Source of the DNA: an uncultured Thermoleophilia bacterium
GTDB lineage: Bacteria > Actinomycetota > Thermoleophilia > UBA2241
Assembly (NCBI GenBank): GCA_963717965.1
Contig: CAVQXS010000003.1
Span: 326,896-390,895 of the forward strand
Length of the DNA: 64,000 nt
Direction: 5' to 3'
A program made the translations under genes and the position numbers. This document shows, piece by piece, positions 23,166 through 63,650 of this stretch (the stretch's first letter is position 1; each line of letters opens with the position of its first letter). Under the pieces are notes generated by a model that saw only the letters and a program-made list of their open reading frames with translations, was not told where the DNA came from and did no database searches.

Positions 23166-23207
23166 CGACGACCCCCTCTCAGGGACAGTGCGCGACTCAC
23201 GGACCGG

Positions 23208-24476: not shown

Positions 24477-24820
24477 GTGGGCTCCTTTCGGCCGGACAAG
24501 GCGAGGTAGACGATCGATCGGCCGCCACTGCGGCTACGTCCACCTGAAGGTTCACGGTAGGCGGATGCGGCGGCCCGGTCTCACCCCGGATCCGGCCAGA
24601 GACGGCTGTAGATGAGGAGGATGGTCACGGCGGGCTCCCTCCTGAGCCGGTCGGGCTCGCGACGACGTCCGCCTCGAGCCCTCGGCCAGAGCGTATCGGA
24701 TACGCCGCGCCTTGGCACGCCGCGCGCGTACGCGCGAGGGAGCGCGACGCGGTGGCGCGGCCGCCAGGATGTCCATTCCGGACAGCACGCCGCCGGTGTC
24801 CGGGCGCCCCAGTGGCGCGC

Positions 24821-30734: not shown

Positions 30735-30855
30735 CGATACGCCGATCAGTGTGTGGTGTCCCTTCGGCGCACCACACGTTGACTGCACTTCGTCGGTCAC
30801 TGAAGGGTGCGGCTACGCCGCCCCCCTCGTTGACCCGGCTGCGTCGGTCAATCGG
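30735..30855. repeat. Three copies of a degenerate 51-bp unit carrying TGAC..GTCA palindromes
   Basis: Minus-strand copies are TTGACCGACGCAGCCGGGTCAACG, GTGACCGACGAAGTGCAGTCAACG and CTGATCGGCGTATCGTCAGCAGCG. The 51-nt period is confirmed by the 17-aa spacing of DRRS/DRRS/DRRI in track ORF 30694..31305. The middle unit contains an 8-bp hairpin, GTGTGGTG...CACCACAC. Confidence 0.5.
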
Positions 30856-32636
30856 CGGCGAAGCCGAGACGGCCGGCGAAGACATCCAGGAACCGCTTGT
30901 CGGTGGCGAGATCGAGGAACTCGATCCGCTCGCGCAGCCGGGCCATGCGGTTCCTCGCGCGCACGTCGATGAGGGCCATCTGGGCGCCGACACCGGCGGC
31001 GTTGCCGACGAACGCGACGCGCCGGGTGGAGACGGGCGGGAACAGGCCGAGGTACTGCGCCGCGGCCAGGTCGAGGTAGTTGCCGAAGGCGCCGGCGATG
31101 TAGACGGTGTCGAGCTCCTCCAGCGAGACGCCGAGGCTGTCCATGAGGAGCTCCCAGCCGGCGTGGATGGCGCCCTTGGCGAGCTGCAGGCTGCGCACGT
31201 CGTGCTGGGTGAAGACGATCTCGCCGTGCGGCCCGGTGGTGAGGAGGTACTCGTTGCCCTCCTCGCCCTTGCGCACGCGCGGGTGATCCAGCTGCATGCG
31301 GCCACTCTTGTCGACGACGCCGGCGTGCACGAGGCCGGCGAGTAGGTCGACGACGCCCGAGCCGCAGATGCCGATGGGCTCGGCGCCGGCTATGGTCACG
31401 ATCTCGCGGGCGTGACCGGCGGGGTCGATCTTGACGCGCTCGATGGCGCCGGCGACGGCCTTCATGCCGTTGCGGATCTGATAGCCCTCGAAGGCGGGAC
31501 CGGAGGCGCAGCTGGTGACCGTGACGCGCCCGTCGTGGGAGAGCGCGATCTCGGTGTTGGTGCCGATGTCGATCGCCATTGACGGACGCTTCTTGCCGGC
31601 GAGGTGCGTCGCCGAGATCACGGCCAGGGCGTCGGAGCCGACGAAGCCGGCGATCGGCGGCGGGAAGTGCACACCGCCGTTCGGGATTCATGTCGATGCC
31701 GAGCTCACTCGCGCGCAGCGTGAGCGGCTCGGCCGCGGCCGGCGCGAACGGCGCCTGGCCGAGGCCGACCGGTGAGAGGCCGAGGGCGAGGTGGTGCATC
31801 GCCGTGTTGCCGACCACGGTCATGTCGCACACGTGGTTGGCGTGGACCTCCTGGCGCTCGTAAAGCACGGCAAGGTTGGCGTTGATGCCCTCGCGCACGG
31901 CGGCGGCCAGGGTGGCTGTGGCCTGGTTCTGCGCCGCGTGCGCGATGCGGCTGATCACGTCCTCCCCGTAGCGCATCTGTGGGTTCTCGATCGCCTCCTG
32001 ATCGATGAGCACGCCGCGCCTGAGGTCGAAGAGATAGGCGATGACCTTGGACGTGCCGACGTCGACGGCGACGCCGTAGAGCTCGCGGTCGCGCTGGCCG
32101 GGGTGGACGTCGATGACGCGCTTCCCGTACAGCGTCGCCGTGACGCTCCACTTGCCGTCGCGGAGCTTGGCGGGCAGGCAGTCGAGCACGTTCAACGGCA
32201 CCTCGACGCCGCCGAGAGCCTCGTCGAAGCGCTCGAGGTCGGAGCGCTTGTCGGCCAGCGTCGGCGGCACAAGCTGCAGGGAAACCGTCCGCACGGCCGG
32301 GCGCGCGGCGCCGTGATGCAGCCTGGAGGTGGTGAGGATGCGCCGCTGCCCGGCGGTGCCGCGCACCTCGATGCTGACGCGCGCCGAGCGGGGGTACGCC
32401 TGGCACGCCAGGCGCCAGCCCTCGGCGCGCAGCTTCTCGGGGATCCGCTTGAGCTCGCGCTCCGAGGGCACCGTGAGCTCGCCCGAGCCCAGGCGCACGA
32501 GGCACTTGCCGCAGGTGCCGCGGCCGGCGCAGTCGGTCGGGATGTCGATCTGGGCGCGCACCAGGCCGTCGAGCAGGTTCTCCTGCTCGTCCACGGTGAG
32601 CGTGAGCCCGATGGGCTCGACGAAGACCCTGGGCAC
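30848..32636 (-). CDS. RACo/AcsV-type corrinoid reductive activase (N-terminal [2Fe-2S] ferredoxin + ASKHA/DUF4445 ATPase); one frame disruption near 31685
   Basis: CAGRGTCGKC...LACQA plant-type 2Fe-2S motif. DVGTSKVIAYLFD and AIDIGTNTEIAL ASKHA phosphate motifs. GICGSGVVDL. Split between ORFs 30813..32636 and 30848..31672. Confidence 0.8.
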
Positions 32637-34053: not shown

Positions 34054-35471
34054 TCAGACCACGCCTCCGCGACGATGCGCCGAAGCGTGCCGAGGACCTC
34101 GTCGCCGAGCGGCACGGCAGTGTGCTCGGCGAGGAGCCGGCCGGCGATGACGGTCGCCTTCTCGTAGGCCCCCTCCCTGCCCGAGGCGATCCAGGCGTCC
34201 CACATGCTGCGGTCGAGCAGCCGGGGACGCCACACGTCCTTCATGTGCCGGCGCGTGTGGCGCTGGCCGAGGAAGTTGCCGCAGATGTCGACCAGGCGGA
34301 TGGCGTCGAGCGCCATGGTCTCGTCGTCGACCTCGATGCCTGCCGCGATCTTCGCGTTCCAGCTGAAGATCTCGGTGTCCATGACCAGCTGCTGCGGGCT
34401 GAAGGTCATGCCGGCGCCGAGGGTACCGGCTCCGCCGGTCACGTCGGCGCCCGCGGCGGTCGTGCTCAGCGCGGCGAAGGCGTCCTGCGTGCAGGCCTGC
34501 CAGTCGGGCTCGTGGCTCGTGGTGCGCTCGCCGCCGGCGACGAGCGGCAGGCCGACGTGGGCGGCGAGCTGTGCGGCGGCGAGCTGGAAGAGCGAGGCCG
34601 ACGGGCCGGCCGCCGGCAGGCCGGCGACCGCGGGGTCGGCGGCGTAGAAGAACGGCGCGCCGGGGACCGCGGCCTGGACGGCCGCGCAGCCGGCGAGCAC
34701 GCCGGCGTGATGGCGGATGAGGGCGACGACGAGGTCGGGGGGCGGCGGGCCGCCGATCGGGGTGGGCGGGCCGGGCGGGCCGGCCCCCTCCGCGGCGTCG
34801 GTCGCAGCACCGCGCGGCGCGAGAACCAGGCCGACGGGCAGGCCGGCGCGCGCGAAGACGAGCGCCGCGTCCAGCGCGTCGGCGCCCCCGCAGAGCGAGA
34901 GCGGCGGGTGGCGGCGCGACTCGCCGGCGGAGCCGGCAACGGCCGCCGCCATCGCCGCGGCGGCTTCGGCCTCGGCGGACGCCGTCAGGCCCGAGGCCAT
35001 CACGTGCTTACTCGTGCCGGCGAAGCAGCGCACGAGCTCGCCGAGCGCGGTCTCGCCGACGGCATGCACGGGCGGTCCGGCGACGACGGCCACCTCGGGC
35101 AACCCGTCGGCGAGACGCACGGCGGCGTCCAGGTCGTCCGCGGTCGCCGGAACGGGATCGCCGCCGGCGAGCGGGCGCACCCGCGCCGGCACCCCAGCGC
35201 CCCCGGCGGTCGGGACGCCGGCCGCCAGCCACAGCAGGCCGGCGCCCACGGTCACGTCGTGCCCCGGCGCGCGGCCGGCGAGGGCGAAGGTCGCGGGCGC
35301 CGACGCGGTCGCGGCTTCAGCCGCGGCACTCCCGACGCCCAGAAGTCCCAGCGCGGCCGCGTGCACGCGCGCGACGTCATCATCGCTGAGCACGCGCAGC
35401 GAGAGGCGCGCCGGCGTCGTCATGATGGGGCGCGCCTGGGGCTGCGCCGCGCCCTGCGTCGGCTCGGTCAC
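34054..35471 (-). CDS. MttB-superfamily methyltransferase paralog B (divergent, Ala/Gly-rich); 3' end approximate
   Basis: The C-terminal half aligns with the other paralogs (SPQQLVMDTEIFSWNAKIAAGIEVDDETMALDAIRLV..GNFLGQRHTRRHMKDVWRPRLLDR). The GTG start overlaps the upstream stop (GTGA). The reading frame has no stop until 33384; a TGA one frame off lies at 34054-34056. Confidence 0.65.
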
Positions 35472-36905
35472 CGGCTGCCCCCTGCCGCCTCGGCGAGCAC
35501 GGCCTGCAGCCGCTCGCGGATCGCTGCGTCCAGCGCAAACGCGCGCGGCTCATCGCGCAGCTCCTGCGTGCGCGCGACCACGCGCTCCTTGAGCGTGCTC
35601 GCGCCGGCGGCCGCCCAGCGGTCGTGCGTGGCACGATCGAACAGGCGCGGCTGCCACGTCTCGCGGTGATGCTGGCGCGTGTAGCCCCGGCCCAGGTGAC
35701 TGCCGCCGGGGCCGACCGCGTCTATTTCGTTGAGCGCCAGCGCGTCGTCGTCCACGCCGACCTCGACGAGCAAGGCGCGGGCGTAGCCGACGAGCTCGTC
35801 ACCGAGGACGATGGTCTCGTAGCTGCTCTGCAGGCCGCTCTCGAGGTAACCGACGTCGTGCAGCAGCGTGGCGCGGCTGAGCGCACCGAGCACCGCAGTG
35901 ATGCCGGCCTCGGCCGCCCACTGCTCGTCGAACGTCTTGGCGTCGGCGACCGCGGCGTAGGCGAAGCTCGGCAGGCCGTAGAAGCGCGCCAGATCGGTCG
36001 CCGCGGCATTGCCCAGGAAGTGCTCGGGGGCGCCGTACACGTCGACGGCGGTGCGCATGTCGAAGGCACCGCAGCCGACGCCGTACACGAACGGCGCGCC
36101 GCTGCGCGTCAGCTGGTGGATGACGAGACCGCTCAGCGTCTCGGCGTTGCCGACGACGATGGTCGCGGTCATGGAGGCCGGCGCTGTGGTGCCTGCAGCC
36201 GGCGCTGGTGCGTAGATGAGCGGGATGTCGAGCTCGGCGCAGGCCTGGACCTTGTCCAGCGCCTCGGCGCTGTGGACCAGCGGCGGGCTGGGCATCGCGT
36301 AGCAGCCGAAACTCCGCGGCCCCCCCGCACATCGCGGCCATGTCCTTCATGCTGCGCAGGGAGCCCGCGTCGTGCGCCGTCGTCAGCAGCGGCTTGCGCG
36401 TGCCGGCGAGCATGGCGGCGAACTGGGCGAGGTCGCCGACCTCGGCCGCCACGTCGTTCGGGAGTCCCATGCTCATGACGAAGTCGAGGTTGGGCAGCTT
36501 CTCCGCAAGTGCGGCCATGCCCTCGACGTCGGCGGTCCTGCTCTGGCGACGCTCGCCGGTGTCGGGGTCGGCGACGTAGACGCAGTCCGACCCCGTGCCG
36601 AAGTAGCTGTTGCCGTCCTTGAGCTCGAGGCCGCCGAGCTCGCCGCGGCGGGCGTGACCTTCGCCGCCGGAAGCGCCGCGCTCCCTGAGCTTGAAGTGAC
36701 GCGGCGCGCTCTGCAACGCTGCGTCCACCAGGGCGGCCGGGATGCGGGCGCGCGTCCCTTCGACGCGCGCGCCCGCCTCCGCCAGCCGCTCGCGGGCACC
36801 GGCGTGGCGGACCTCGACGCCGGTCTCCTCCAGCAGCGACAGCGTCGCTTCGTGGACGCGCCAGCAGGCGGCGTCGTCCCAGACGGTGAGGCGGGCGGCG
36901 GGCAT
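35468..36905 (-). CDS. MttB-superfamily (non-Pyl) methyltransferase paralog A; one frame disruption near 36300
   Basis: ORF 35799..36905 (MPAARLTVWDDAACWRVHEATLSLLEETGVEV...) joins ORF 35468..36295 (MPSPPLVHSAEALDKVQACAELDIPLIYAPAPAAGTTAPAS...GYLESGLQSSYE...GPGGSHLGRGYTRQH). A likely homopolymer indel (gagTTTcgg) separates them. Confidence 0.8.
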
Positions 36906-38371
36906 CAGGCCCCCGCCAGCTCCTGGTCGGCGCGGTCGACGATCGCGCGCAGCTCCCTCACCACGTCCTCAGGGAGCGGCTCGGGCCGGTAGCTGGCCAG
37001 GATGTCGTCGGCGATCTCCGTCGCCTTCTCCAGGGCGCCCTTCTTGCCCTCGCGCAGCCAGTTGTCGTACGGGGTACGGTCCCACACGGTGGGACGCCAG
37101 ATCTCCTGCATGTGCCGGCGCGTGTGCTTCTCGGCGAGGTAGGTGCCGTTCGGACCGACCTTCTTGATCACGTCGAGCGCCAGCGTCTCGTCGTCCACGA
37201 GGATGCCGCCTGCGACCTTCTGGACGATCCCGTAGATCTCGGTCTCCATGATCATGTGCGGGTAGCTCAGGATCTTGGACCCGTTGAGCAGCCCGGCGCC
37301 GTTCATCATGTCCGCGTTGGTCATCACGCTGGCGAAGGTGCTGAACGAGTCGTCGATCGCTGCCTGCCAGTCGGGCTCCTTGGCGCCGGTGGCCATGGTG
37401 CCCATCGCCATCGGCACGCCGTAGAAGTGGGCGAGCTGGGTGGAGGCGCCGGCGAGCAGGTAGTCCTCGGGCGAGCCGCCGGTATAGCCGCCGGTCTTGA
37501 GGTCGATGACGCTCGGGGCGCCGGCGAAGAAGGCCGGCACGCCCGGGTAGGCCAGCTCGAGGAGCACGACGCCGCTGAGCGCCTCTGCATTCTGGACGAC
37601 GAGATTGCCGGCCAGCGTCGCCGGGCCGGTCCCGGCCGCAAGTGGCATGGGCATGAAGCCGCTGGCCAGCCCGTGCTCTGCGGCCACGAGATTGGCCTCG
37701 AGGTTGGGGCCATCGTGCGCGAGAGGATCCACGGCGCACTGCATGAAGCTGAGGATCGGGCGCTCGCGCAGCTTGTCCGTGCCGCCGGCGATGGCGGCCG
37801 CCATCTCGACGAGGTAGCGGGCGGGCTTCTCGCCGACCGTGGTCACCGTCTGGAAGTGCTTGCTCGTGTTGGCGAACACGGCCTCGGCGTCGTGGAGCGC
37901 CTTGGTCGCCGGGGGCACGTCCTGGCTGGTGACCACGGGGCCCCAGTAGTAGCTGATGTTGGGGAGCGCGTCGACGAAGCGGGCGCTGGTCGCCGCGTCG
38001 GCCTTGGTGCTCGGTCGCTTCTCGCCCGTCTTGTGGTCGAACACAAAGACGCCGGAGCCGTCGTTGCTGAGGTAGCTGTGCTTGCCGTCGATCAGCATGT
38101 CGCAGTCGGGGTGGCGGCCGGCGAGCACGTAGCTGTCCGGCACAAGCGAGACGGCCTCCATGACGACCGCGCGAGGGAGCTTGACGATCTGCGTCGCGCG
38201 GTCCACCTCGCAGCCGTTCTTCTCGAGCACGTCGAGGGCGCGCTCACTGGGGAACCGGATGCCCACCGTCTCGAGCACGTCGAGGGTGGCCTCGTGGATG
38301 CGCTCGAGCTCACTCGGATTGAGGACGTCCCACCAGAGACGGGGGGCGATGGGGTTGATACGGGTGGTCAT
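36905..38371 (-). CDS. MttB-superfamily (non-Pyl) methyltransferase paralog C
   Basis: Intact, 488 aa: LWWDVLNPSELERIHEATLDVLETVGIRF..., GTGPATLAGNLVVQNAEALSG, GAKEPDWQAAIDDS, METEIYGIV, GPNGTYLAEKHTRRHM. Confidence 0.9.
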   Translation of the reverse strand: MTTRINPIAPRLWWDVLNPSELERIHEATLDVLETVGIRFPSERALDVLEKNGCEVDRATQIVKLPRAVVMEAVSLVPDSYVLAGRHPDCDMLIDGKHSYLSNDGSGVFVFDHKTGEKRPSTKADAATSARFVDALPNISYYWGPVVTSQDVPPATKALHDAEAVFANTSKHFQTVTTVGEKPARYLVEMAAAIAGGTDKLRERPILSFMQCAVDPLAHDGPNLEANLVAAEHGLASGFMPMPLAAGTGPATLAGNLVVQNAEALSGVVLLELAYPGVPAFFAGAPSVIDLKTGGYTGGSPEDYLLAGASTQLAHFYGVPMAMGTMATGAKEPDWQAAIDDSFSTFASVMTNADMMNGAGLLNGSKILSYPHMIMETEIYGIVQKVAGGILVDDETLALDVIKKVGPNGTYLAEKHTRRHMQEIWRPTVWDRTPYDNWLREGKKGALEKATEIADDILASYRPEPLPEDVVRELRAIVDRADQELAGA

Positions 38372-38647: not shown

Positions 38648-40060
38648 TCAGGTCCCCGGCCGATGAGCCTCGACGTCGGCGAGGATCCGGTCGAGGCCCG
38701 CCTTTGCGTCGTCCGGCAGCTCGAAGGCGCGCGGCTCGGAGCGCAGCTCCGCGACCCGCGCCCTCAGGCGGTCGAGCAGCGTCCGCGACCCGCCGGCCTC
38801 CCACGCGTCGTGGCGGGTCGTGTCGAAGAGGTCGCTCTGCCAGATCTCCCGGAAGTGCCTTCTCGTGTAGGGCCGGGCCAGGTGGTTGCCGCCCGGCCCC
38901 ACCGCCTTGATCTCGTCCAGCGCCAGAGCCTCGTCGTCGGTGGCCAGCGGCGCCATGAACGCCTTGGCCCAGCCGAGCACGTGGTCGCCGAAGACGATCG
39001 ACTCGTAGCTGCCCTGCAGGCCGCACTCGAGGTAGCCCACGTCGTGCAGCAGCGTCCCGCGCGAGAGCTTGCCGAGGATCGCCGTCAGCGACGTCTCCGC
39101 GCTCCACTGCTCGTCGAGCACCTTGCTGTCCGAGTGCGCCGCGTAGGCGAAGCTCGGCAGGTCGTACCAGCGCGCCAGGTCGGTCTGCGCCTGGTGGCCG
39201 CGGAAGACGTCCGCGGAGGAGTACACCTCGTTCATCGTGCGCATGTTCATCGCGCCGACTCCGACGCCCCAGACGAACGGCGCGCCCGGCCTGACGGCCT
39301 GGCTGAGCACGAGGCCGGCGAGCACCTCGGCGTTGGCCACCACGATCACCGCGGTGACGCTCGCCGGCGCTGTCGTGCCGGCGTTCGGCGCCGGCGCCCA
39401 GATGAGCGGGATGCCGAGCTCGGCGCAGGCGATCACCTTGCTGGCGCCGTCCTCGTCGAACAGCAGCGGGGGCACGGGCATCGCGTAGATGCCGAAGCTG
39501 CCGACCTCGCCGGCCAGCGCCGCCATCTCCCGCATCTTCGGCAGGATGTGCCCGTCCCTCGGGGCGACGATCAGCGGCTTGCGCGTGCCGCGCATCATGG
39601 CGTCGACCTGCGCGAGGTCGTCGACGGCCTGCGGCGCGTCCTCGGGCAGGCCCATGCTCATCACGAAGTCGATGTTGGGGAGCTTCTCGCAGAGCGCGGC
39701 CATGCCCTCGATGTCGGCGCGGCGCACCCGGCGGCGCTCGCGCGTGTCGGGGTCGCAGACGTAGAGCACGTCCGAGCCGGTGCCGCAGTACGTGTGGTGG
39801 GCGTCGAGGACGAGCGGCTCCGTCTCGCCGCCGCGCGGCTTGATCGTCCAGTCGCGCGGCGCGCTCTTCAGCGCCGCCTCGACCAGCTCTGCAGGGATGC
39901 GCACGCGCCTGCCGTCGACCTGCGCACCGGCCTCGGCGAAGAGCTCGGCGGCCGGCGCGTACTTGACCTCGATGCCGGTCTCGGCGAGCACCTCCAGGGT
40001 CGCCTCGTGGACGCGCCGGCAAGCGGCCTCGTCCCAGATCGTCAGGCGAGCTGCGTTCAT
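38648..40060 (-). CDS. MttB-superfamily (non-Pyl) methyltransferase paralog D
   Basis: ATG at 40060 behind AAAGGAGAGA. 470 aa, closest to paralog A (MNAARLTIWDEAACRRVHEATLEVLAETGIEV..., APAPNAGTTAPAS, GYLECGLQGSYE, GPGGNHLARPYTRRH). Confidence 0.9.
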   Translation of the reverse strand: MNAARLTIWDEAACRRVHEATLEVLAETGIEVKYAPAAELFAEAGAQVDGRRVRIPAELVEAALKSAPRDWTIKPRGGETEPLVLDAHHTYCGTGSDVLYVCDPDTRERRRVRRADIEGMAALCEKLPNIDFVMSMGLPEDAPQAVDDLAQVDAMMRGTRKPLIVAPRDGHILPKMREMAALAGEVGSFGIYAMPVPPLLFDEDGASKVIACAELGIPLIWAPAPNAGTTAPASVTAVIVVANAEVLAGLVLSQAVRPGAPFVWGVGVGAMNMRTMNEVYSSADVFRGHQAQTDLARWYDLPSFAYAAHSDSKVLDEQWSAETSLTAILGKLSRGTLLHDVGYLECGLQGSYESIVFGDHVLGWAKAFMAPLATDDEALALDEIKAVGPGGNHLARPYTRRHFREIWQSDLFDTTRHDAWEAGGSRTLLDRLRARVAELRSEPRAFELPDDAKAGLDRILADVEAHRPGT

Positions 40061-40147
40061 GTTCGGTCTCTCCTTTGCTCGCACTCGCCGGCTCGCGGGC
40101 CGCGAGAGCCCTGGACACGGTCGGCCCGCAGCGGCGATGCTACCGGA

Positions 40148-43846: not shown

Positions 43847-44141
43847 GGTCGCCTCCAGCGGAGTAGACGGACTGAGGAGCGGCCGGGCAGGGCCGCCGTT
43901 GCCGAGCACGATACCACCGCCGGTGAGATCCGGACTGCGACACCTTGAGCAGCGAAGCTCGCGGCGCGTCCGAGCCGGCCGGCGCCGATCGCTCGGCGAA
44001 GTCGGGCGCGCGCCGGGCCGACGCTTTACTCGCGCGCCCCCTGCCCTTACGCTCGGCCTCGGCGGGCGCCGCGGCGCCCCCGCCACGGCGCCCGCGGGGG
44101 CGGGCGTTCCGGTGGCCAAAGCTCCTCGCGGAGGTGCTGGA

Positions 44142-45611
44142 ATGAAGCGGAACCTGCATGCCGGGCGACCCACCTCAGGGGGGCTCAGCCTGAACGTGTT
44201 CACCGAGGCCGAGCTCGACGACATCCATCTCGGCTCGCTCGAGGTGCTGGAGCGTACGGGGGTCTGGGTCGAGGCCGACGACGCGCTCGACATCCTCGGC
44301 GACGGTGGTTGCGTCGTGAATCGCGAGACGCGCGTGGTGCGCATCCCGCCACATCTGGTGGAGGATGCGATCCGCTCGGCTCCACCCAAGAACTACCTGT
44401 GCGGGCGCGACTCCGAGATGGACCTCGTCCTCGAGGGCGGCCGCGTCTACTTCTCCAACTTCGACGAGGGCATCATGCTCGTCGACTCACGCACCGGCGA
44501 GTACCGCCACCCGGTCCTGCAGGACGTCCGCGAGGCCGCGCGGCTGGTCGACGCGCTCAGCGACATCGACACCTACGAGTCGGCGGTGCACCCGACCGAC
44601 GCGCCGGAGGCGACCGCCTGTCTCTACAAGTGGGAGGCGGCGATCCTCAACACCGGCAAGCCGGTCGGCACCGAGGCGACCAGCGCCTACGACTGCCGCA
44701 AGCTGATCGAGCTGGCGACCGTGGTGGCGGGTGGCGAAGACGAGTTCCGTCGTCGCCCGCTCATCGGCTTCGGCGTCTGCCCGGTGAGCCCGCTCAAGCT
44801 GCCGCGCGACGCCACCGAGGTGATCATCGAGTCGGCGCGCGCCTGGTGCCCGGACACGATCCTCAGCATGGCGATGTCCGGGGGGTCGTCCCCGGTCACC
44901 CTCGCCGGCACGCTCGTGCTGCACAACGCCGAGGTGCTCTCCGGCATCGTGCTCTCGCAGCTCGTCGAGCGCGGCTGCCCCGTCACGTACGGCTCGTCGA
45001 CGACGGCGATGGACCTCAAGCTGGCGGCGGCGTGCGTGGGCTCGCCCGAGCTCGCCCTGTTCAGCGCCGCCTGCGCCCAGATCGCCCGCCGCTACCTGCT
45101 GCCGAGCTTCGTCGCCGGGTTGTAGGCGGACTCCAAGCTCGGTGACGCGCAGACCGGTCACGAGAAGACCCTCACCGGACTCCTTCCTGCGTTGGCAGGC
45201 GCCAACCAGATCTACGGAGCGGGGATGATCGAGTCGGGCGTCACCTTCGACCTTGGCCAGCTGGTCATGGACAACGAGATCGCGCGCATGATCAAGTCCG
45301 TCGTCGCCGGCATCCCGGTCACCGACGAGACCCTGGCGGTCGACGACATCGCAAGGGTCGGCGCCTTCGGTGACTTCCTCTCGCTGGACGCGACGCTCAG
45401 GCACATGCGCGAGCTGAGCCAGCCCGAGGTCCTCGACCGCCGCGTGCGCGAGGACTGGGAGGCGCGCGGAGCGACCGATCTCGCCACCCGGACGCGCGCC
45501 CGTGCGCTCGAGCTGGTCGAGTCCCACCAGCCCCTGCCGCTCGACCCCGACGTGGCCGAGCAGGTGCACCGCATCATCGCAGCCGCCGACCGCGAGAAAG
45601 GCGTCACGTGA
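44142..45611 (+). CDS. mttB: Trimethylamine methyltransferase MttB, pyrrolysine-type (in-frame TAG at 45123-45125 = codon 328)
   Basis: ATG at 44142 behind GGAGG. ..[73 protein letters not shown].. in one continuous frame (43560..45125 and 45192..45611 are both in the same frame, coordinate mod 3 = 0). 489 codons in total. Confidence 0.75.
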
Positions 45612-46972
45612 AGGACCGGCTCAAACCCATCGACCGCGACCGCCTCGCGGGACTCCAGGCGGCCGAAGACGAGCTCTTCGTCCAGCGCCACCCGCACTCC
45701 CGCGAGCTCTTCGAGCGGGCCCAGTCGCACCTGCTCGACGGCGTGCCAATGAACTGGATGACACGCTGGGCCAGCCGGTTCCCGCCCTTCGTGGCGGAGG
45801 CGCACGGCGCCCGCTTCACCTGCGTCGACGGGCACGAGTACATCGACTTCTGCCTGGGCGATACCGGCGCGATGACCGGTCATTCGCCGGATGGACCCGT
45901 CTCGGCGATCGCCGCCCAAGCCGCGCGGGGAATCACGACGATGCTCCCCACCGAGGACTCGCTCTGGGTGGCCGGCGACCTCGCGCGCCGCTTCGGCCTC
46001 CGTTACTGGCAGCTGGCGCTCACGGCGACGGACGCCAACCGGTTCGCCGTTCGCCTCGCGCGCCACGTCACCAAGCGGCCCCGGATCCTCGTCTACAACT
46101 ACTGCTATCACGGGTCCGTGGACGAGACGATCATCACCATCAACAACGGCGTCCCGGGCCCCAAGCCGGGCAACGCCGGCCCTCCGGTCGACCCGACGGT
46201 CACCACCAAGGTGATCGAGTGGAACGACCTCGATGCCCTCGCAGAGGCGCTCGCGCCCGGCGACGTGGCCTGCGTCCTCGCCGAGCCGGCCCTCACGAAC
46301 ATCGGCATCATCCTGCCGGACGCGGGCTACCACGCCGGACTGCGCCGGCTCACCCGCGAGACGGACACACTCCTCGTCATCGACGAGACGCACACCATCT
46401 GCGCCGGTCCCGGCGGCTGCACCGCCGCGTGGAACCTCGAACCAGACATGGTCACCCTCGGCAAGCCGATCGGCAGCGGCGTCCCCGCCGCCGTGTACGG
46501 CTTCGGAGACGCGATCGCCGACCGTGTCCACGCGGACTGGGACTACCATGCCGCCGACGAGTGCGGCATCGGCGGCACACTCGCCGGCAACGCCCTGAGC
46601 GTGGCGGCGATGCGAGCAACGCTGGGCGAGGTGCTCACCGAGGAGACCTACGCGCGCACGATCCCGCTCGCCGGCCGCTGGGCGGACGGCGTCCAGGGCG
46701 TGATCGACGAGTTCGGCCTGCCCTGGGTGGTCAAGCGCCTCGGCTGCCGCGCGGAGTACTGGCCGCGACCCGTTGCGCCCCGCAACGGGGGCGAGGCGGC
46801 CGCGGCAGAGGACGAGGAGCTCGACCGCTACCTCCACCTCTTCATGCTCAACCGCGGCATCCTGATGACGCCGTTCCACAACATGGCGCTGATGGCGCCG
46901 CAGACGACCGCCGAGGACGTCGACCGCCACACCGAGGTCCTGCGCGAAGCGGCGAGGACGCTTGTCGGCTGA
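45608..46972 (+). CDS. Class-III (GSA-aminomutase-like) PLP-dependent aminotransferase
   Basis: The GTG start overlaps the mttB stop (GTGA). GARFTCVDGHEYIDFCLGDTGAMTGH, TATDANRFAVRLAR, LLVIDETHT, TLGKPIGSGVP (PLP lysine). Confidence 0.85.
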   Translation: MKDRLKPIDRDRLAGLQAAEDELFVQRHPHSRELFERAQSHLLDGVPMNWMTRWASRFPPFVAEAHGARFTCVDGHEYIDFCLGDTGAMTGHSPDGPVSAIAAQAARGITTMLPTEDSLWVAGDLARRFGLRYWQLALTATDANRFAVRLARHVTKRPRILVYNYCYHGSVDETIITINNGVPGPKPGNAGPPVDPTVTTKVIEWNDLDALAEALAPGDVACVLAEPALTNIGIILPDAGYHAGLRRLTRETDTLLVIDETHTICAGPGGCTAAWNLEPDMVTLGKPIGSGVPAAVYGFGDAIADRVHADWDYHAADECGIGGTLAGNALSVAAMRATLGEVLTEETYARTIPLAGRWADGVQGVIDEFGLPWVVKRLGCRAEYWPRPVAPRNGGEAAAAEDEELDRYLHLFMLNRGILMTPFHNMALMAPQTTAEDVDRHTEVLREAARTLVG

Positions 46973-47002: not shown

Positions 47003-48481
47003 TCACCGCTCGATGCCGGCCAGCTCGGCGTCGGCGGCCGCGACGAGCCTTCGGAGCTCGGCGCGCACGTCTTCGGGGAGCGGGTCGGGCGCGTGCGTCC
47101 GCAGGATCTCACGCGCCCGCTCCTCCGCGTTCTCGAGCGCGCCCCGCTTGCCGGCGGCCAGCCAGGCGTCGTAGGACGTCCTGTCCCAGACGCCCGGACG
47201 CCAGATCTCGCCCAGGTGCGCCCGCGTGTGCTTCTCGGCGAGGTACGTACCGCCGGGGCCGACCCGGCGGATCACGTCGAGCGCCAGTGTCTCTTCGTCG
47301 ACCTCGATGCCGCCGGTGACCTTCTGCACGATGCCGTAGACCTCGGCTTCCATCAGCAGATGCGCGTAGCTCAGGGTCTTCGAGCCGTCGAGCAGTCCGC
47401 AGCCGCTCATCATCTCGGCGCCTGCCGAGACGCTGGCGAGCGTCGACAGCGCGTCATCGACGGCTGACTGCCAGCCCGGCTCCTTGGCGCCGCTCGCCAT
47501 CGTGCCCATGTTCATGGCGAAGCCGAAGTGGTGCGCCATCTGCGTGGCGGCAGCGGCCAGGACGTAGTCCTCCGGGCTGCCGCCGGTGTAGCCGCCGGTC
47601 TTGAGGTCCATGACGGAGGGCGCGCCGGCCAGGAAGACGGGCGCGCCCGGGTACGCCAGCTGGACGAGGACGACGCCGGCGATCACGGCCGCGAGGTTCA
47701 CGACGAGGTTGCCGGCCATGGTGGCCGGCGCGGAGGCGCAGGCGAGCGTGAGCGAGAGAAAGCCGACCGGCACGCCGGCCTCCGCGCAGACGAGCGCCGC
47801 CTCGAGGCTCACGGCGTCGTTGCTCAGCGGGTCGATGGGGCAGGCGATGAGGCTCATGAGCGGCCGGCGGCGGAGCGCGTCGGCCCCGCCGGCCACCGCC
47901 CGCGCCATCTCGACGGCACGGCGCGTGATCTCTTCTCCGACCACGTCGACCGCCTGGAAGTGCTTGCTCGTGTTGGCGAAGACCGCCTCGAGCTCGTGCA
48001 GCGGTCGCGTCGCCCGCGGCACGTCCTCGGCGGTCACGACCGGTCCCCAGGAGAAGCTCACCTGCGGTAGTGCGTCGACGAAGCGGGCGGAGTCGGCGAC
48101 GTCGGCCTTGGTGCCCGGCCGCAGCTCGCCGGTCTCGGGGTCGATGACGCGCACGCCGCAGCCGTCGTTGCTGAGGTGACAGGCGGAGCCGTCGAGGACG
48201 ATGTCACAGCGCGGGTCGCGGGCGGCGAGGAGCGGCGCCTCCGGCGCCGCCTGCAGCGCCTCCCGCACGATGTGCTCGGGCAGGCGCGCGACCTGCGACG
48301 CGCGGTCGACGCGGCAGCCGCCGCGCTCGAGCGCGTCGAGCGCGCGCTCCAGCGGGAAGCGGACGCCGACCTCGGCCAGCGTCTCGAGGACGGCGGCCTC
48401 GAGCCGCTCAACGTCCTCCGCGCTCAGCACCCGCCAGCGCAGGCGCGGCCTGATGGGGTCGATCCGCGCCACCTCGGCCAT
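47003..48481 (-). CDS. MttB-superfamily (non-Pyl) methyltransferase paralog E
   Basis: Intact, 492 aa, closest to paralog C (LRWRVLSAEDVERLEAAVLETLAEVGVRF, GAKEPGWQSAVDDA, MEAEVYGIV, GPGGTYLAEKHTRAHL). Confidence 0.9.
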   Translation of the reverse strand: MAEVARIDPIRPRLRWRVLSAEDVERLEAAVLETLAEVGVRFPLERALDALERGGCRVDRASQVARLPEHIVREALQAAPEAPLLAARDPRCDIVLDGSACHLSNDGCGVRVIDPETGELRPGTKADVADSARFVDALPQVSFSWGPVVTAEDVPRATRPLHELEAVFANTSKHFQAVDVVGEEITRRAVEMARAVAGGADALRRRPLMSLIACPIDPLSNDAVSLEAALVCAEAGVPVGFLSLTLACASAPATMAGNLVVNLAAVIAGVVLVQLAYPGAPVFLAGAPSVMDLKTGGYTGGSPEDYVLAAAATQMAHHFGFAMNMGTMASGAKEPGWQSAVDDALSTLASVSAGAEMMSGCGLLDGSKTLSYAHLLMEAEVYGIVQKVTGGIEVDEETLALDVIRRVGPGGTYLAEKHTRAHLGEIWRPGVWDRTSYDAWLAAGKRGALENAEERAREILRTHAPDPLPEDVRAELRRLVAAADAELAGIER

Positions 48482-52201: not shown

Positions 52202-53584
52202 TCAGCCGACGCGCGCCAGCCGCCGGAGCTCGGCATCCACCGCCGCGTCGAGAGCGGGCGGGCGGTGCGCAGCGACCGCGCCGGCCACGCGTTCGTGGGC
52301 GCGGTCGATCGCCGTCTGCCGGCCGCCGGCGGTCCAGTAGCGGTGCGGCTCGTCGACGGCGAGGGATGGGCCGCCGGCGGCGGGCGGAGCCTGTCCGCCG
52401 GCCGAGCCGCCGGCGGCCGTCAGATCGAGACCGGCGGCGATCGTGCGTGCTTGCGTGAGCGTCTCCACCCCGAGCGCCATCTCCTCGTAGCTGAAGATCC
52501 GGCCCCCGGAGACCATGCCCACCCCGGTGAGCATGTCGACACCGGCGGCCAGCGAAAGGTACGTCGTCGTCGTGTCGTCCAGCGCCGACTGCCAGCTCGG
52601 CTCCTTGGCGCCGCTCGAGTTCACGCCGCACTGGGTCGGCAGGCCGTAGAAGTGACCGACGTCGCCGACCGCCGCCGCCATGATCGTGTCCTCGGGGGCG
52701 CCGCCGGTGAAGTCGCCGCTCTTCAGGTCCATGACGCTCGGGATGAAGCAGATGAACACCGCTGCCCCGGGGAACGCCGCTTGGATGGCGCAGACGGAGC
52801 TGAGCGCCTCGGCGATGCCGACGACGAGCGACCCCGCCATGGTGATCGGCGTGGTCGAGCCGCCCATCGGCATGGTCACGAAGCCGATCGGGATGCCGGC
52901 CTCGGCGAAGACCAGGCCGGCCTCCAGCGTCCCGGCGTCGTTGCCGAGCGGCGTGACGGTGCCGAGCAGAGCGCTGATCGGCGGCTCGGCGCGAAGCTTC
53001 TCCTCAGAGCCGCTCACCGCCAGGGCCATCCGCACCGCGTCCGCCGCGAGCTCGGGCTCGACGACGGTCACCGTCTGCACGTGCTTGCCCGTGTTGGCGA
53101 TCGCCAGGTACAGCTCGTGCAGGCCGCGGACCGAGGCGGGCCGGTCCTGCGCGCTCACCGCGGGCCAGGAGAAGTCGATCTCGGGCAGCGCGTCGACGAC
53201 GCGGCTGATGGTGGCCACGTCCTCCGCCGTGGTGCCCCGCTTCTCGCCGCTCTCGAGATCGTAGATCTCGACGCAGCAGCCGTCGGTCGTGATCAGCGAG
53301 CGGGCGCCGGTGACGATGGGGGCTGCGGCGCGAGCCCCGAGCGTCATGCGCGCCGGCGCCAGGCCGATCAGCCGGCGCACCACCTCGGCAGGCATGGTGA
53401 CGCGCGCGCCGTCTGCTGCGGCGCCCTGCGCCACGAGGGCCGCGCGCGCCCGCTCGGACGGCATGGCCACGCCGACCTCGGCGAGCACGGCGAGCGCCGC
53501 CGCATCTAGGTGGTCGAGGTCCTCCCGCGAGAGGATGGAGAGACGCCCGGCCGAGCCGATGGTGTGGGTGGGGGTGTCCGTCAT
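52202..53584 (-). CDS. MttB-superfamily (non-Pyl) methyltransferase paralog F
   Basis: ATG at 53584 (MTDTPTHTIG). LSILSREDLDHLDAAALAVLAEVGVAM, GGSTTPITMAGSLVVGIAEALS, GAKEPSWQSALDDT. Gly/Ala-rich insertion near the C-terminus. Confidence 0.85.
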   Translation of the reverse strand: MTDTPTHTIGSAGRLSILSREDLDHLDAAALAVLAEVGVAMPSERARAALVAQGAAADGARVTMPAEVVRRLIGLAPARMTLGARAAAPIVTGARSLITTDGCCVEIYDLESGEKRGTTAEDVATISRVVDALPEIDFSWPAVSAQDRPASVRGLHELYLAIANTGKHVQTVTVVEPELAADAVRMALAVSGSEEKLRAEPPISALLGTVTPLGNDAGTLEAGLVFAEAGIPIGFVTMPMGGSTTPITMAGSLVVGIAEALSSVCAIQAAFPGAAVFICFIPSVMDLKSGDFTGGAPEDTIMAAAVGDVGHFYGLPTQCGVNSSGAKEPSWQSALDDTTTTYLSLAAGVDMLTGVGMVSGGRIFSYEEMALGVETLTQARTIAAGLDLTAAGGSAGGQAPPAAGGPSLAVDEPHRYWTAGGRQTAIDRAHERVAGAVAAHRPPALDAAVDAELRRLARVG

Positions 53585-53726
53585 CGTCGCGCTCCACTTC
53601 GTCCGCGGGCATTCAACCAAGAACGGCCGGCGCACGGCCGTCCTTCTCGCCGCAGGCATGCGCGGCGCCGGGGGGCGCCAGTCTAGCACGTTGTGGCCCC
53701 CCCTTCGGGGCGAGTACCATCCGTGA

Positions 53727-57989: not shown

Positions 57990-58314
57990 TGTGGAGAGTG
58001 TGGACAACTCGCTTTTGTCATGCTCTCAGGCTCACGATTGCCGTGGAAAAGGCGTTGACGAAGAATCGTTGCCTTGACAGTGGGTCAACACGACCCTCAT
58101 CTCGCGAAATCTCCGTTTTGCAGCGATTCATAGCTGCTCCCAGCCGCGAACACCGGGGTTGACAGCGGACCCGTTCTTGGGTTGCGGCCGTCCCGTCGCC
58201 GGCCACCCCGGAGGGACCCCCTGAAACCGGGGTTTCCACAACAGCCGCAAATTGGGCATCTTCGCGGGGGGCCGACCGGGGACTTTCCACATATCGTGAA
58301 CAGCCTGTGGACAA
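57990..58314. promoter_or_regulatory. DnaA-box cluster upstream of the GHKL/wHTH-dnaA unit
   Basis: TGTGGACAA at 57999-58007 and 58306-58314 (complement of TTGTCCACA). (G/C)TTTCCACA at 58232-58240 and 58283-58291. Weaker TGTGGAGAG at 57990-57998. Locally reduced GC. Confidence 0.55.
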
Positions 58315-58404
58315 CTTCGCTCTTTCGCCTGCAAAACCCCGTTTCGTGAGGCTCCATGGAGGGTTTCGGTAGGGCCGTCACGCTCTGCTATACTCGGCGC
58401 CCCT

Positions 58405-59241
58405 ATGGAGTCGTTCCTCGACAGGCTGCTCGCCGACGAGGGGGCCGCCGCACAACAGCCCGCGGGACGGGCTGCACCCACGGCGGCCCCTCCCCCGCGG
58501 GGAACGGCAGACGGCCCGCTCCCCGACGTCCCCCTCGGCCTCGAGGCGCCGCGCATCGCCATCTACGATACGCTCACCAGCCCGCCGCGAGTGATCGCCA
58601 TCGAGGAGGAGGATCTCCCGGCGCTGATCGCCTCACTCGCTGAGAAGACCTACCACTACTGCCGCGAGCAGGGCGGCCAGGTGCCCTACTCCGTCATCCA
58701 GGAGTTGATCGAGAACCTCCTGCACGCCTGGTTCCGCGACGTCGTCATCACGATCCTGGACAACGGGCAGACGATCCGCATCTCCGACCACGGGCCCGGG
58801 GTCGACGACAAGGACCGGGCCTTCCAGCCAGGGTTCACCACGGCGACCGCCTTCCAGCGGCAGATCATCCGCGGCGTCGGGTCCGGGCTGCCCCTCGCGC
58901 GCGAGTCGCTGCAGTTCCTGCGCGGCATCCTGACCGTGGAGGACAACCTCGGCGGTGGCGCCGTGTTCACCATCAAGATGCCGTCCACCGCCGAGGGACG
59001 ACCGGCGCCGGCCGGCGCCCCGGCGATCAAGCTCACGACGCGCCAGACCAAGGTCCTCGTACTGCTCATGGAGCTCGGCTCCGCCGGTCCGACGGCGATC
59101 GCCAAGGAGCTCGGATCCTCGCCCGCGACGGTGTTCCGGGAGCTCGTTGTACTGCAGGACATGGGGTTGATACACTCGCTCGGCGACGGCAAGCGAGCCT
59201 TGCGCGAGGAGGGTCTCCGCCTCCTCGAGAGCATCCTCTGA
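58405..59241 (+). CDS. Orphan GHKL (histidine-kinase-like) ATPase domain fused to a C-terminal winged-HTH
   Basis: N box ELIENLLHA, G1 DHGPGV, F box FQPGFTT, G2 GVGSGLPLA, GGGAVFTIKMP. Then TTRQTKVLVLLMELGSAGPTAIAKELGSSPATVFRELVVLQDMGLI (MarR/ArsR-like wHTH). No HisKA/H-box. Confidence 0.7.
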   Translation: MESFLDRLLADEGAAAQQPAGRAAPTAAPPPRGTADGPLPDVPLGLEAPRIAIYDTLTSPPRVIAIEEEDLPALIASLAEKTYHYCREQGGQVPYSVIQELIENLLHAWFRDVVITILDNGQTIRISDHGPGVDDKDRAFQPGFTTATAFQRQIIRGVGSGLPLARESLQFLRGILTVEDNLGGGAVFTIKMPSTAEGRPAPAGAPAIKLTTRQTKVLVLLMELGSAGPTAIAKELGSSPATVFRELVVLQDMGLIHSLGDGKRALREEGLRLLESIL

Positions 59242-59400
59242 CCGACGTTCACGACCCACCCCGGCGGGCCGCCGCATCCCCGGGGTCGACCTGACGGGAC
59301 CGCGACGGACGACGAGCTCACACGCATCTGGGAAGAGGCGAAGAAGCACCTTCGCGGGCGCCTGAACGAGTCCGCGTTCCAGTTCTGGTTCGACCGGACC

Positions 59401-60715
59401 GTGCCCTTCGGCCTCGATGACGGCGCGTTCGTCATCGGCGTGCCCAACGACTTCGCCCGCGAATGGATCGACCGGCGCCTCGCCAAGCAGGTGGCCGAGG
59501 CGCTCGAGGAGGTCCTCGGCGACGCCGTCGAGGTGCGGGTCGTCGTGGACGCGCGGGCGGCGGAACAGCCCCAGGCGCCGGCGGCGCCGGACGCCGGGGG
59601 CGGCGAGCCGGCGGAACAGGCGTCTCCGCCGCCGAAGCGTCGCCGCGGCGGCCCGAGCCGCCGCGGGCGTGCGACCGGTGACCTCAACCCCCGCTACATC
59701 TTCGATCGCTTCGTCGTCGGCCCCAACAACGAGTACGCGACCGCGGTCGCCCGCAGCGTCGCCGAGTCACCGGCCACCGCGTACAACCCGGTGTTCATCT
59801 ACGCCGACACCGGACTCGGCAAGACACATCTCACCCAGGCGATCGCGCACGCCACTCTCGAACAGCACCCCGAGCTTGCAGGTGCGCTACGTCACCTGTG
59901 AGCGGTTCACCGATGACTTCATCAACGCCGTCACCGACAAAGGGCGCATCGAGGGCTTCAAGCAGACCTACCGCGACAACGACGTCCTCATCGTCGACGA
60001 CGTGCAGTTCCTCGCCGAGAAGCAGCAGACCCAGGTCGAGTTCTTCCACACGTTCAATGTCCTGTACGAGGCCGGCAAGCAGATCGTGATCACCAGCGAC
60101 CGGCCGCCACGCGAGCTCGAGGCGCTCGAGGAGCGCCTGCGCTCGCGTTTCGGCCAGGGCGTCGTGGTCGACATCGGCCGGCCGGACCTCGAGACGCGCA
60201 TCGCCATCCTGCGCAAGCAGGTCAAGTGGGAGGGGTTCCAGATCGCGGAGCCGGAGGCCCTCGAGTGGATCGCGCAGAAGGTGACGACCAACATCCGCGA
60301 GCTGTACGGCGCGCTCACCCGTGTAGTCGGCTTCGCCTCGATCCAGGACACCGACGTCACCGTCGAGACCACCAAAGAGGCGCTCAAGGACATCCTGCCC
60401 AAGGCCTACCAGCACCCCGTCACCATCGAGATGGTGCAGGCCGAGGTCGCGCGCCAGTTCGGCCTGCACGTCAACGACCTGCGCGGCAACCGCCGCACCC
60501 AGGACGTCTCCTATGCGCGCCACATCGCCATGTACCTGTCGCGCGACCTTACCGAGGCCTCGCTGCCGCAGATCGGTGAGCGCTTCGGCGGTCGTCACCA
60601 CACGACGGTGATCCACGGCGTCGACAAGATCGAGCGGCAACTCAAGGACGGCCACGACCCGCAACTGCAGGACCTGGTCGCTCTCATCAGCGCGCGCCTC
60701 AAGACCGCGCACTGA
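59401..60715 (+). CDS. dnaA: Chromosomal replication initiator DnaA (frame disruption near 59876; domain-I homology begins upstream near 59305 without a canonical start codon)
   Basis: ORF 59401..59901 (..[49 protein letters not shown]) joins ORF 59417..60715 (..[85 protein letters not shown]). Confidence 0.9.
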
Positions 60716-62398: not shown

Positions 62399-63650
62399 GA
62401 CTCGTCAACTTCCGCTCGTACTGCGACACCACGGTCACGTTCGGACCGGGCCTCAACGTCGTCGTCGGCGAGAACGCGACCGGCAAGACCAACCTCCTGG
62501 AGGCCGCGTGGTTCGCTCTGCGCGGGAGCTCGCCTCGCACGCGGCGCGACGAGAAGCTGATCACCTGGGGCGAGCGCTTCGCACGCGTGGAATTGCAACT
62601 GGACACGCCGGACGCCGGCGCGCAGCAGGTCGACGTCGGCTTCGCGCCGAGCCAGGGCAAGCGCATCCGCTGGGACGGCCTCGAGGTAGCGTCGTTCGAC
62701 GAACTGCGCGGGCGCAGCCAGGTCTTCATCTTCGTGCCCGAGAGCCTGCTGCTCGTCAAGGGCAGTCCAGCGCGGCGGCGCGCCCATCTCGACGCCTTCG
62801 CCGCCGCGCTCGATCCGCAGTACGCCGCCGCCGCCCGCGACCTGCAGGCGGTGCTCCGCCAGCGCAACGCACAGCTGGCGGCGGTGAGGAACGGGGCGGA
62901 TCCCGGCCGCGCTCGACCCGTGGGACGCGCAGTTCGCGCGCGTCGCGGCGGCGCTGGGCCGCCGCCGCCGCGACCTCGTCGCGGAGCTGGCGGCCGGATT
63001 CTCCGAGACGGCGGCGGCGCTCGCGCCGGCCGGCGAGAACTTCGCGCTCCGGCTGGCCGCGCAGCTCGAGGGCGTCGGGTACGACGAGGCGGCGCTGCTC
63101 GAGGAACTGCGCTCGCGCCGGCCCGGCGAGGTCGGCCGAGGGCTCTCGCTCTTCGGGCCTCACCGCGACGACCTCAGGTTCCTGGAGGTCGGATCGCCGC
63201 CGCCGGAGGGCGAGGCTGTCCCGGCCACCGCCGCGGTCCCGTCCCGTGCCGACCGCGACAGGGGGACGCGTGTGCGGCCCCGTCGAGTTGCCGCGCGGCG
63301 GCCGCGACCTGCGCCTGTTCGGCTCACAGGGAGAGCAGCGCGCCGCCGTCCTTGCGCTGCTGCTGGCGGAGCAGCGGCTCGCGGCGGCGCGTACCGGGCA
63401 GCAGGGGCCGCTCTTCCTCGACGATGTGATGAGCGAACTCGACGACCCCCGCCGTCGGCTGCTGGTGCGCATCCTCGCCACCGCCGGGCAAGCGATCATC
63501 ACCACGACCGACCGGCACTACTTCACCGACCAGGAGCTCGCTGGCGCCACGGTGGTCGAGCTGCCACTGGACGGTTCCCTCGCCGCCGGCGAGGTTTCTC
63601 CGCCACTCGATGACGTCCCGCCGCCGCCCCCGGGTCTGGACGCGCTGTGA
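62380..63650 (+). CDS. recF: DNA replication/repair protein RecF (two frame disruptions, near 62900 and 63200-63290)
   Basis: LRLVNFRSY, Walker A GENATGKTNLLEA (ORF 62380..63429). The middle part AALDPWDAQFARVAA..LSLFGPHRDDLRF is in the third frame. C-terminus FGSQGEQRAAVLALLLAE..PLFLDDVMSELD (ORF 62508..63650). Confidence 0.85.

Follow-up and report, generated by a model that had tools for sequence, protein, structure and literature searches.

We analysed a 64-kb stretch of DNA (hereafter the window) from an uncultured bacterium of the class Thermoleophilia, phylum Actinomycetota (assembly GCA_963717965.1, contig CAVQXS010000003.1, positions 326,896-390,895 of the forward strand). The window has a GC content of 70% and contains a gene of the MttB (trimethylamine:corrinoid methyltransferase) family that is interrupted by an in-frame UAG codon. 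The reading frame of this gene, mttB, runs on the forward strand from ATG 44142 to TGA 45609-45611 and comprises 489 sense-or-UAG codons. Its sole interruption is the TAG at 45123-45125, which is codon 328. A GGAGG sequence resembling a Shine-Dalgarno site can be read at 44130-44134 on the same strand, 7 nucleotides 5′ of the start codon. The start also agrees with the length of more than 100 clusters of homologous proteins, discussed below, that have 327 amino acids. A preliminary description of this DNA, based on the sequence alone, had given the same start behind GGAGG, the same TAG and the same codon numbers, and we confirmed each of these on the sequence.

The part of the gene upstream of the UAG (codons 1-327, positions 44142-45122, forward strand) ends in ...[13 protein letters not shown], and its translation covers positions 2-312 of the TIGR02369 (trimeth_pyl) profile with 422 bits. 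The same frame resumes as [15 protein letters not shown]... and this second part (codons 329-489 and the TGA, positions 45126-45611, forward strand) covers profile positions 315-469 with 220 bits. The GC content at third codon positions (GC3) of the second part is 0.91. A GC3 of about 0.9, found in both halves of mttB, is the mark of true coding sequence in a window of this composition. The next gene in the list of open reading frames (ORFs) encodes a class-III aminotransferase (45608-46972, forward strand; PF00202; 648 bits with the NF005453 transaminase model). Its GTG start codon at 45608 overlaps the TGA of mttB within the sequence GTGA, as had been noted before, and the order of the two genes is kept in relatives.

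Pyrrolysine (Pyl) is the catalytic residue of the known MttB enzyme. When the joined protein was searched with phmmer against all PDB chains, it matched MttB of Methanosarcina barkeri (7xcl, 7xcm and 7xcn; E=3e-116), with residues 2-484 of the query aligned to residues 3-490 of the chain. Residue X328 of the query lies opposite the X that represents Pyl334 in 7xcl_A, and opposite a K in the otherwise identical chain 7xcm_A. The block around the site is [23 protein letters not shown], compared with 'psyvagsXsdakvpddqaghekt' in M. barkeri, and the two share the pattern ps(f/y)vag-X-(a/s)d(s/a)k...d(a/d)q(t/a)ghekt. UAG codon 328 therefore occupies the catalytic pyrrolysine position, residue for residue, as the preliminary description had proposed.

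Profile scores assign the joined protein to the Pyl-dependent enzymes within the family. It scores 660.6 bits on the NCBIfam equivalog model TIGR02369.2 'trimeth_pyl', whose equivalog cut-off is 525 bits, and the match extends over profile positions 2-469 of 469. Its score on PF06253 is 302 bits. In the PDB search, M. barkeri MttB reached 392 bits, compared with 215 bits for MtgB (2qne). Seven members of the MttB superfamily are encoded in the window, and the joined protein is the sole one above the TIGR02369 cut-off. Members such as the glycine betaine methyltransferase MtgB of Desulfitobacterium hafniense (2qne) share its fold and PF06253, but at the Pyl column they carry a sense codon, and their scores stay below this cut-off.

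The resemblance to M. barkeri MttB thus includes the end-to-end alignment, the UAG/Pyl column, the ...VAG-O-xDxK...DxQxGHEKT block around it, a SMAMSGGSSPV motif and a TIGR02369 score above the cut-off. By contrast, the host of the window gene is a bacterium, namely an actinobacterium with 70% GC, and the gene has no adjacent mttC. Instead, the aminotransferase gene follows it and six non-Pyl MttB paralogs surround it.

To survey relatives, we scanned one genome per GTDB species, which yielded 79 loci; two ENA contigs brought the set to 81. All 79 loci come from metagenome-assembled genomes (MAGs) of uncultured Thermoleophilia, Actinomycetes or Actinomycetota, and were sampled from Microflora Danica soils, the fen, bog and palsa of Stordalen Mire, lakes in Sweden and Finland, catalogues of soil MAGs, and digesters. 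The best MttB identity between the window and these genome loci is 93%. The window is syntenic with relatives at 81-91% nucleotide identity, so its organism belongs to this group as a separate, related species.

The 81 loci hold 89 orthologous copies of mttB, counting as orthologous those whose C-terminal part is at least 60% identical. In 89/89 copies the equivalent of codon 328 is TAG. It is never replaced by TGA, TAA or any sense codon, and past it the frame stays open in each copy. Distant non-Pyl paralogs in the relatives have GCC, GCG and similar codons at the aligned site. A purine invariably follows the UAG: among 85 unique sequences, this nucleotide is G in 70 and A in 15.

The segment downstream of the UAG evolves as coding sequence. 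Over 150 codons in 77 orthologues, there is not one internal stop codon, and differences at third codon positions are far more numerous than those at first and second positions. For example, a pair of orthologues that is 95% identical has 6, 4 and 29 differences at codon positions 1, 2 and 3 of this segment. The coding sequence past the UAG is thus maintained by purifying selection.

Protein databases contain the truncated form of the gene. A search of 5.8 billion proteins found more than 100 clusters of homologues with exactly 327 amino acids and 67-92% identity (92% for the best match), while the nearest full-length proteins, of about 490 amino acids, are just about 50-56% identical. Against the 327-residue orthologues of Thermoleophilia MAGs, the pre-UAG segment has 83-93% identity for the closer ones and 64-93% for the whole set.

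Some related loci have two Pyl-type mttB copies at most 20 kb apart (L001, L003, L004, L006, L011, L012, L019, L036, L047, L057 and L066). The second copy is more divergent and often reads YRLPSYVAGL-TAG-GDSKLFDAQTG around the site; the TAG is kept in every copy. Relatives also carry mtbB, the gene for dimethylamine methyltransferase, interrupted by an in-frame TAG (L002:7037-8449, forward strand, and L001:1166-2554, reverse strand). The two parts of mtbB cover positions 6-355 and 357-464 of the TIGR02368 profile, such that the TAG falls on the Pyl356 column. The set of Pyl proteins in Thermoleophilia relatives therefore exceeds one gene. We found no mtbB in the window. This gene was described as almost exclusive to Methanosarcinales (Borrel et al. 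2014).

The decoding of UAG as Pyl requires dedicated genes, and we looked for these in metagenomes by scanning JGI data for CLRPMLAPxLY, a motif conserved in all PylS, written in high-GC codons. The scan returned 112 metagenome loci, of which 112/112 are true PylSc, and 66 of them are complete on contigs with a GC content of at least 0.69. Several high-GC loci have a tRNA-Pyl(CUA) nearby. With a presumed D. hafniense PylSc sequence as the query, the 112 loci show 52-57% identity with E-values down to 1e-108, as a true PylSc would. The Methanosarcina mazei PylRS query was verified against the PDB (E=5e-183). When one of the PylSc proteins from the scan served as the query, it had more than 100 close clusters. 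NCBI labels some of these 'pyrrolysine--tRNA(Pyl) ligase large subunit', with either '[Thermoleophilia bacterium]' or '[Actinobacteria bacterium]' as the organism.

One PylSc locus (P0145) connects this machinery with mttB. The locus is found at 853-874 kb on contig_23250, identical to CAWCSR010000003.1 (1,999,427 bp; MAG MFD04428.bin.2.40). The same contig bears an mttB with the TAG at 1.92-1.94 Mb, whose product is 90% identical to the window MttB. Synteny between the window and this mttB locus extends for about 22 kb, with a nucleotide identity of 81-88%; several other loci are likewise syntenic, at up to 91%. In the P0145 region, PylSc is encoded on the forward strand (TIGR02367, 325 bits, cut-off 178). 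The reverse strand encodes PylSn (TIGR03912, 127 bits, cut-off 51), PylB (TIGR03910, 443 bits, cut-off 348), PylC (TIGR03909, 303 bits, cut-off 248), PylD (TIGR03911, 170 bits, cut-off 150), a tRNA-Pyl(CUA) and a pyl-type corrinoid protein beside pylSc. The pylB, pylC and pylD products make pyrrolysine from lysine. In relatives, a corrinoid protein is also found directly 3′ of the mttB with the TAG.

The pylT of the relative is 73 nucleotides long and exhibits the hallmarks of tRNA-Pyl. A single base separates the acceptor stem from the D stem, the D loop has 5 nucleotides, the anticodon stem is long and the variable loop very short, the T loop lacks GTTC, and G73 is followed by CCA. A complete bacterial-type pyl system thus exists in the clade and, in a relative, is on one chromosome-scale contig together with mttB-TAG. 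Given the synteny with this relative and the family of the protein, we strongly infer that the window's own genome also carries a pyl cluster.

The genes of the relative's cluster (L194:10001-17520 on contig_23250) are scattered over both strands with unrelated genes between them. Their order is pylSc (forward), the corrinoid protein gene (reverse), a second radical-SAM gene and two ORFs of unknown function (forward), pylSn (reverse), a Germane/Gmad2 gene (forward), and then pylT, pylD, pylC and pylB (all reverse). The extra radical-SAM protein of the pyl cluster (L195:11744-12805) has no match among NCBIfam families.

The Pyl systems of D. hafniense, Acetohalobium arabaticum and Bilophila wadsworthia offer a comparison within bacteria. 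Like these, the relative has a split pylSn and pylSc, pylB, pylC, pylD, pylT(CUA) and a corrinoid protein, and the window keeps TAG as a stop codon, which fits the bacterial pattern of 'regulation rather than codon avoidance' (PMC3941956). However, the Thermoleophilia belong to a different phylum, the Actinomycetota. Moreover, the pyl cluster of the relative is about 1 Mb away from mttB instead of beside it, it is interrupted by unrelated genes and divided between strands, and Thermoleophilia relatives additionally have a Pyl-type mtbB.

Based on these data, positions 44142-45611 very likely form a single functional gene for a Pyl-dependent trimethylamine:corrinoid methyltransferase, which would be decoded by a pyl system located elsewhere in the genome. 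Several results weigh against this interpretation. None of the four tRNAs that ARAGORN reports in the window has a CUA anticodon. Searches with tblastn using actinobacterial queries found no PylSn, PylSc, PylB, PylC or PylD in the window, and neither tblastn nor Pfam scans of the remaining ORFs found a corrinoid protein there. The absence of pylT, pylS, pylBCD and a corrinoid protein from the window had been stated in the preliminary description, and is borne out by these searches. Within 10 kb of mttB in the 81 related loci, we also detected no pylS (tblastn with PylS) and no CUA tRNA (ARAGORN); a few weak PylS matches that lie antisense to mttB in these loci are spurious. Furthermore, TAG is a common stop codon in the window, at the end of about 9-10 genes out of about 34 with good support, or about a quarter, including dnaN, the UPF0182 gene and the IclR gene. 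Long open extensions follow some of these TAG codons, so that unrestricted suppression of UAG would be costly.

The use of TAG as an ordinary stop codon is informative about the mode of decoding. We checked all TAG-terminated window ORFs with GC3 support for a coding extension in the same frame, and mttB alone qualifies. Behind the other TAG codons the in-frame sequence has low GC3 and a non-coding character, with one exception where the next gene shares the frame. The TAG of dnaN is immediately backed by a TGA. That TAG still ends dnaN, with a TGA directly after it, as well as the IclR and UPF0182 genes, had been pointed out earlier, and we observed the same. Since TAG ends about a quarter of genes and is followed by non-coding sequence, UAG is not reassigned genome-wide. 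The window also differs in this respect from Pyl-using methanogens (PMC3941956), because its TAG stop codons are not avoided.

The exception just mentioned is a second class-III aminotransferase gene (23208-24533, reverse strand), which ends with TAG. A gene for BKACE, a beta-keto acid cleavage enzyme (22335-23207), begins in the same frame 14 codons further on, and there is no stop codon in between. If Pyl-tRNA were to suppress this UAG, a fused aminotransferase-BKACE protein would result. We considered the aminotransferase gene as a second Pyl gene and rejected it, because the in-frame extension is merely the next gene.

We did not find an RNA structure that could direct the decoding. The 120 nucleotides from the UAG onward fold no better than shuffled sequences (z = -0.13). 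The consensus that alifold derives from 85 orthologues is weak (-19 kcal/mol), has few pairs and is not a convincing structure. A PYLIS-type recoding stem-loop, as proposed for mtmB, was therefore rejected on the basis of both single-sequence and alignment folding. The PYLIS element is not required for Pyl insertion. Given that TAG is a common stop codon and that no RNA structure follows the UAG, the decoding is most likely not codon-specific. We infer a conditional decoding based on competition, as in other Pyl bacteria, and the earlier suggestion of context-dependent or conditional decoding fits the retained TAG stops.

According to this model, a bacterial-type pyl cluster elsewhere in the genome would provide pylT(CUA), pylSn, pylSc and pylB/C/D. 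The Pyl-tRNA(CUA), charged by the split PylSn/PylSc, would compete with release factor 1 at codon 328, and reading of the UAG would lead to a full-length MttB of about 54 kDa. This enzyme is predicted to demethylate trimethylamine and to pass the methyl group on to a corrinoid protein, which the RamA/RACo-type activase encoded at 30848-32636 might keep active. UAG decoding would probably be tolerated through regulated, substrate-dependent expression of pyl, as described for other Pyl bacteria.

We considered four alternatives to Pyl decoding of this single gene. The first is that UAG is a true stop codon, either because the locus encodes two polypeptides, of 327 amino acids and of 139 amino acids starting from TTG 45192, or because the pyl genes have been lost and the gene is decaying. 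A TTG is indeed present at 45192, and the lack of pyl genes in the window is consistent with a loss. However, the 22 codons between the UAG and this TTG ([22 protein letters not shown]) rank with the family's most conserved ones and begin right after the UAG in all orthologues, which would be unexpected for an untranslated spacer. Pyl itself is catalytic in the known enzyme, and in the syntenic relative one contig carries both mttB and a full pyl cluster. We therefore regard a true stop codon as very unlikely.

It is also possible to envisage that UAG is read as a standard amino acid, either by near-cognate suppression or by a conventional amber suppressor tRNA. The invariable purine after the UAG would permit a context effect of this kind. 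Yet the clade has a tRNA-Pyl(CUA), a split PylRS and PylBCD, encoded on the same contig as an orthologous mttB-TAG. Non-Pyl relatives of MttB act on different substrates, and their scores do not reach the Pyl-MttB cut-off. Because UAG is strictly conserved and never replaced by a sense codon, the required residue is presumably one that UAG alone can encode. Reading as a standard amino acid is accordingly highly improbable.

A broken gene, caused by a nonsense mutation or by a base-calling error and yielding nothing other than an inactive product of 327 residues, would explain why gene callers give two ORFs, and indel errors do occur elsewhere in the window (in dnaA, in one MttB paralog and in the RACo gene). 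Against this, the TAG is found at the same codon in every copy, down to 60% identity and in independent assemblies from short and long reads. It falls on the catalytic Pyl site, and the segment beyond it is free of further stops and under purifying selection. In addition, the change is a substitution and not an indel, which agrees with the earlier argument that indel noise does not account for the UAG. The conservation of the TAG effectively refutes a broken gene, and we consider this explanation exceedingly unlikely. Lastly, a genome-wide reassignment of UAG to Pyl, for which an archaeal precedent is described in work cited in the gTranslate preprint, has a practically negligible probability, since the TAG-terminated window genes (dnaN, UPF0182, IclR and others) end where homology ends and, apart from the one next gene in frame, are followed by low-GC3, non-coding sequence.

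Pyl decoding of mttB is thus the interpretation that we retain, and genes of the Pyl system have been reported before in the phylum. The preliminary description had implied that Pyl decoding was new for such a lineage. This did not hold, given the NCBI names of PylS proteins from Thermoleophilia and two publications. A passage in Guo et al. 2022 (PMC9630628) refers to PylRS in 'two Actinobacteria'. Ellenbogen et al. 2023 (PMC10805028) reported that MAGs of Actinobacteriota from Stordalen Mire express Pyl-type mttB and mtbB; Pyl genes were identified there by truncation, and pylS is not mentioned. The genes of those MAGs match the window gene in both kind and phylum, and fen_672, bog_752 and palsa_645 hold TAG orthologues of it. 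In the literature that we searched, there is no substantive pairing of 'pyrrolysine' with 'Thermoleophilia'.

Beyond these two publications, our analysis adds the finding that mttB-TAG and a full pyl cluster share a contig, the conservation of the TAG in all orthologous copies, and the breadth of the gene over Danish soil, lake and peat MAGs. The window genome represents a further species that is not listed in them, and the analysis places it in context. It also contributes the exact alignment to a solved Pyl residue, and the absence of both TAG avoidance and a recoding element. The finding is under-described in the literature, yet it is unsurprising to a specialist and overturns no current understanding.

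We now note properties of the other genes in the window. The mttB gene is located within an island of about 30 kb (22335-53689) that looks dedicated to the catabolism of methylated amines or betaine-type compounds. Besides mttB, the island contains the six non-Pyl MttB paralogs, the RACo/RamA-like activase, the BKACE gene and the two class-III aminotransferases. There are also five or six EamA transporters, an SBP_bac_3-containing ABC transporter, and a radical-SAM enzyme resembling lysine-2,3-aminomutase (508 bits on AblA, just below the cut-off), and no corrinoid protein.

The activase gene (30848-32636, reverse strand; 5′ boundary approximate) has an apparent frameshift. Its product is a RACo/RamA-like corrinoid reductive activase and a candidate activator of the cognate corrinoid protein, with 268 bits on PF14574 (RACo_C_ter) and partial matches to AcsV and to TIGR04270, a methylamine corrinoid activase. 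The upstream half (31705-32505) has no Pfam match.

All six paralogs are on the reverse strand and match PF06253. Those at 34067-35471 (coordinates approximate), 35468-36896 and 38648-40118 have sense codons that we could see directly at the site, namely CGC/Arg at 34524-34526, GTC/Val at 35948-35950 and CAC/His at 39134-39136. The second of these is frameshifted in the assembly, its 5′ end is approximate and its PF06253 match is to the C-terminal part (35468-36346), whereas the third has no TIGR02369 match at E<=1e-10. The paralogs at 36905-38371, 47003-48481 and 52202-53689 score 327.7, 306.8 and 226.7 bits on PF06253, and 460, 441 and 273 bits on TIGR02369, which are all below 525. That all six paralogs have a sense codon at the site, as the preliminary description had it, was thus seen for three of them. 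The remaining three are too divergent for a short tblastn query; their counterparts in relatives have GCC or GCG, encoding Ala, in the context ...MGTM-A-SGAK.

Several genes are split in the assembly. The dnaA gene is divided into overlapping frames (59242-59901 and 59366-60715, forward strand), and the MttB paralog at 35468-36896 (reverse strand) and the RACo gene are also broken. Similar splits are seen in related ENA contigs, in genes for TetR, a B12-binding protein and PylC. These splits look like indel errors of long reads rather than biology. Close to dnaA, an ORF with an HATPase_c domain (within 58300-59901, forward strand) stops at TGA 59239-59241, and the N-terminal ORF of dnaA, which starts at 59242, is in the same frame. 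The two are most likely adjacent genes that share a frame. Two of the ARAGORN predictions lie inside protein-coding genes. These are a 93-nucleotide tRNA-Leu(GAG) at 19075-19167 (reverse strand) within a GAF-GGDEF gene, and a 95-nucleotide tRNA-Ser(CGA) at 62878-62972 (forward strand) within a recF-like ORF, and both are probably false positives in high-GC DNA.

A broader hypothesis is that Pyl decoding is a clade-wide, vertically maintained trait of a large, uncultured group of high-GC Thermoleophilia. Each genome would have one to three Pyl-type mttB genes and a Pyl-type mtbB, with the pyl cluster unlinked to its clients, with no avoidance of TAG and with no recoding RNA element. To us, this hypothesis appears evenly poised between true and false. 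The group is common in soils, peat, lake sediments and digesters. If the hypothesis is correct, an abundant lineage of soil actinobacteria would toggle its genetic code conditionally. As a sink for tri- and dimethylamine, in competition with methylotrophic methanogens, it would then be substantial and as yet uncounted. Gene callers cut mttB into pieces of 327 and 139 amino acids in hundreds of public MAG and metagenome records, and therefore the use of methylamines by Thermoleophilia of soil and peat is systematically missed or mis-called.

The window gene adds a well-supported case of the 22nd amino acid in high-GC Actinomycetota, a phylum that the pyrrolysine literature scarcely covers, its share amounting to two genomes in a single survey and one sentence in work on a peatland. 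Pyl-dependent demethylation of tri- and dimethylamine by abundant organisms that are not methanogens would bear on the way in which bacteria and methanogens divide methylamines among themselves in wetlands. A high-GC organism that combines Pyl with TAG as a common stop codon could serve as a natural test case for a genetic code that is expanded conditionally. Moreover, the PylRS/tRNA-Pyl pairs of Thermoleophilia may be a new, divergent source for genetic-code-expansion work.

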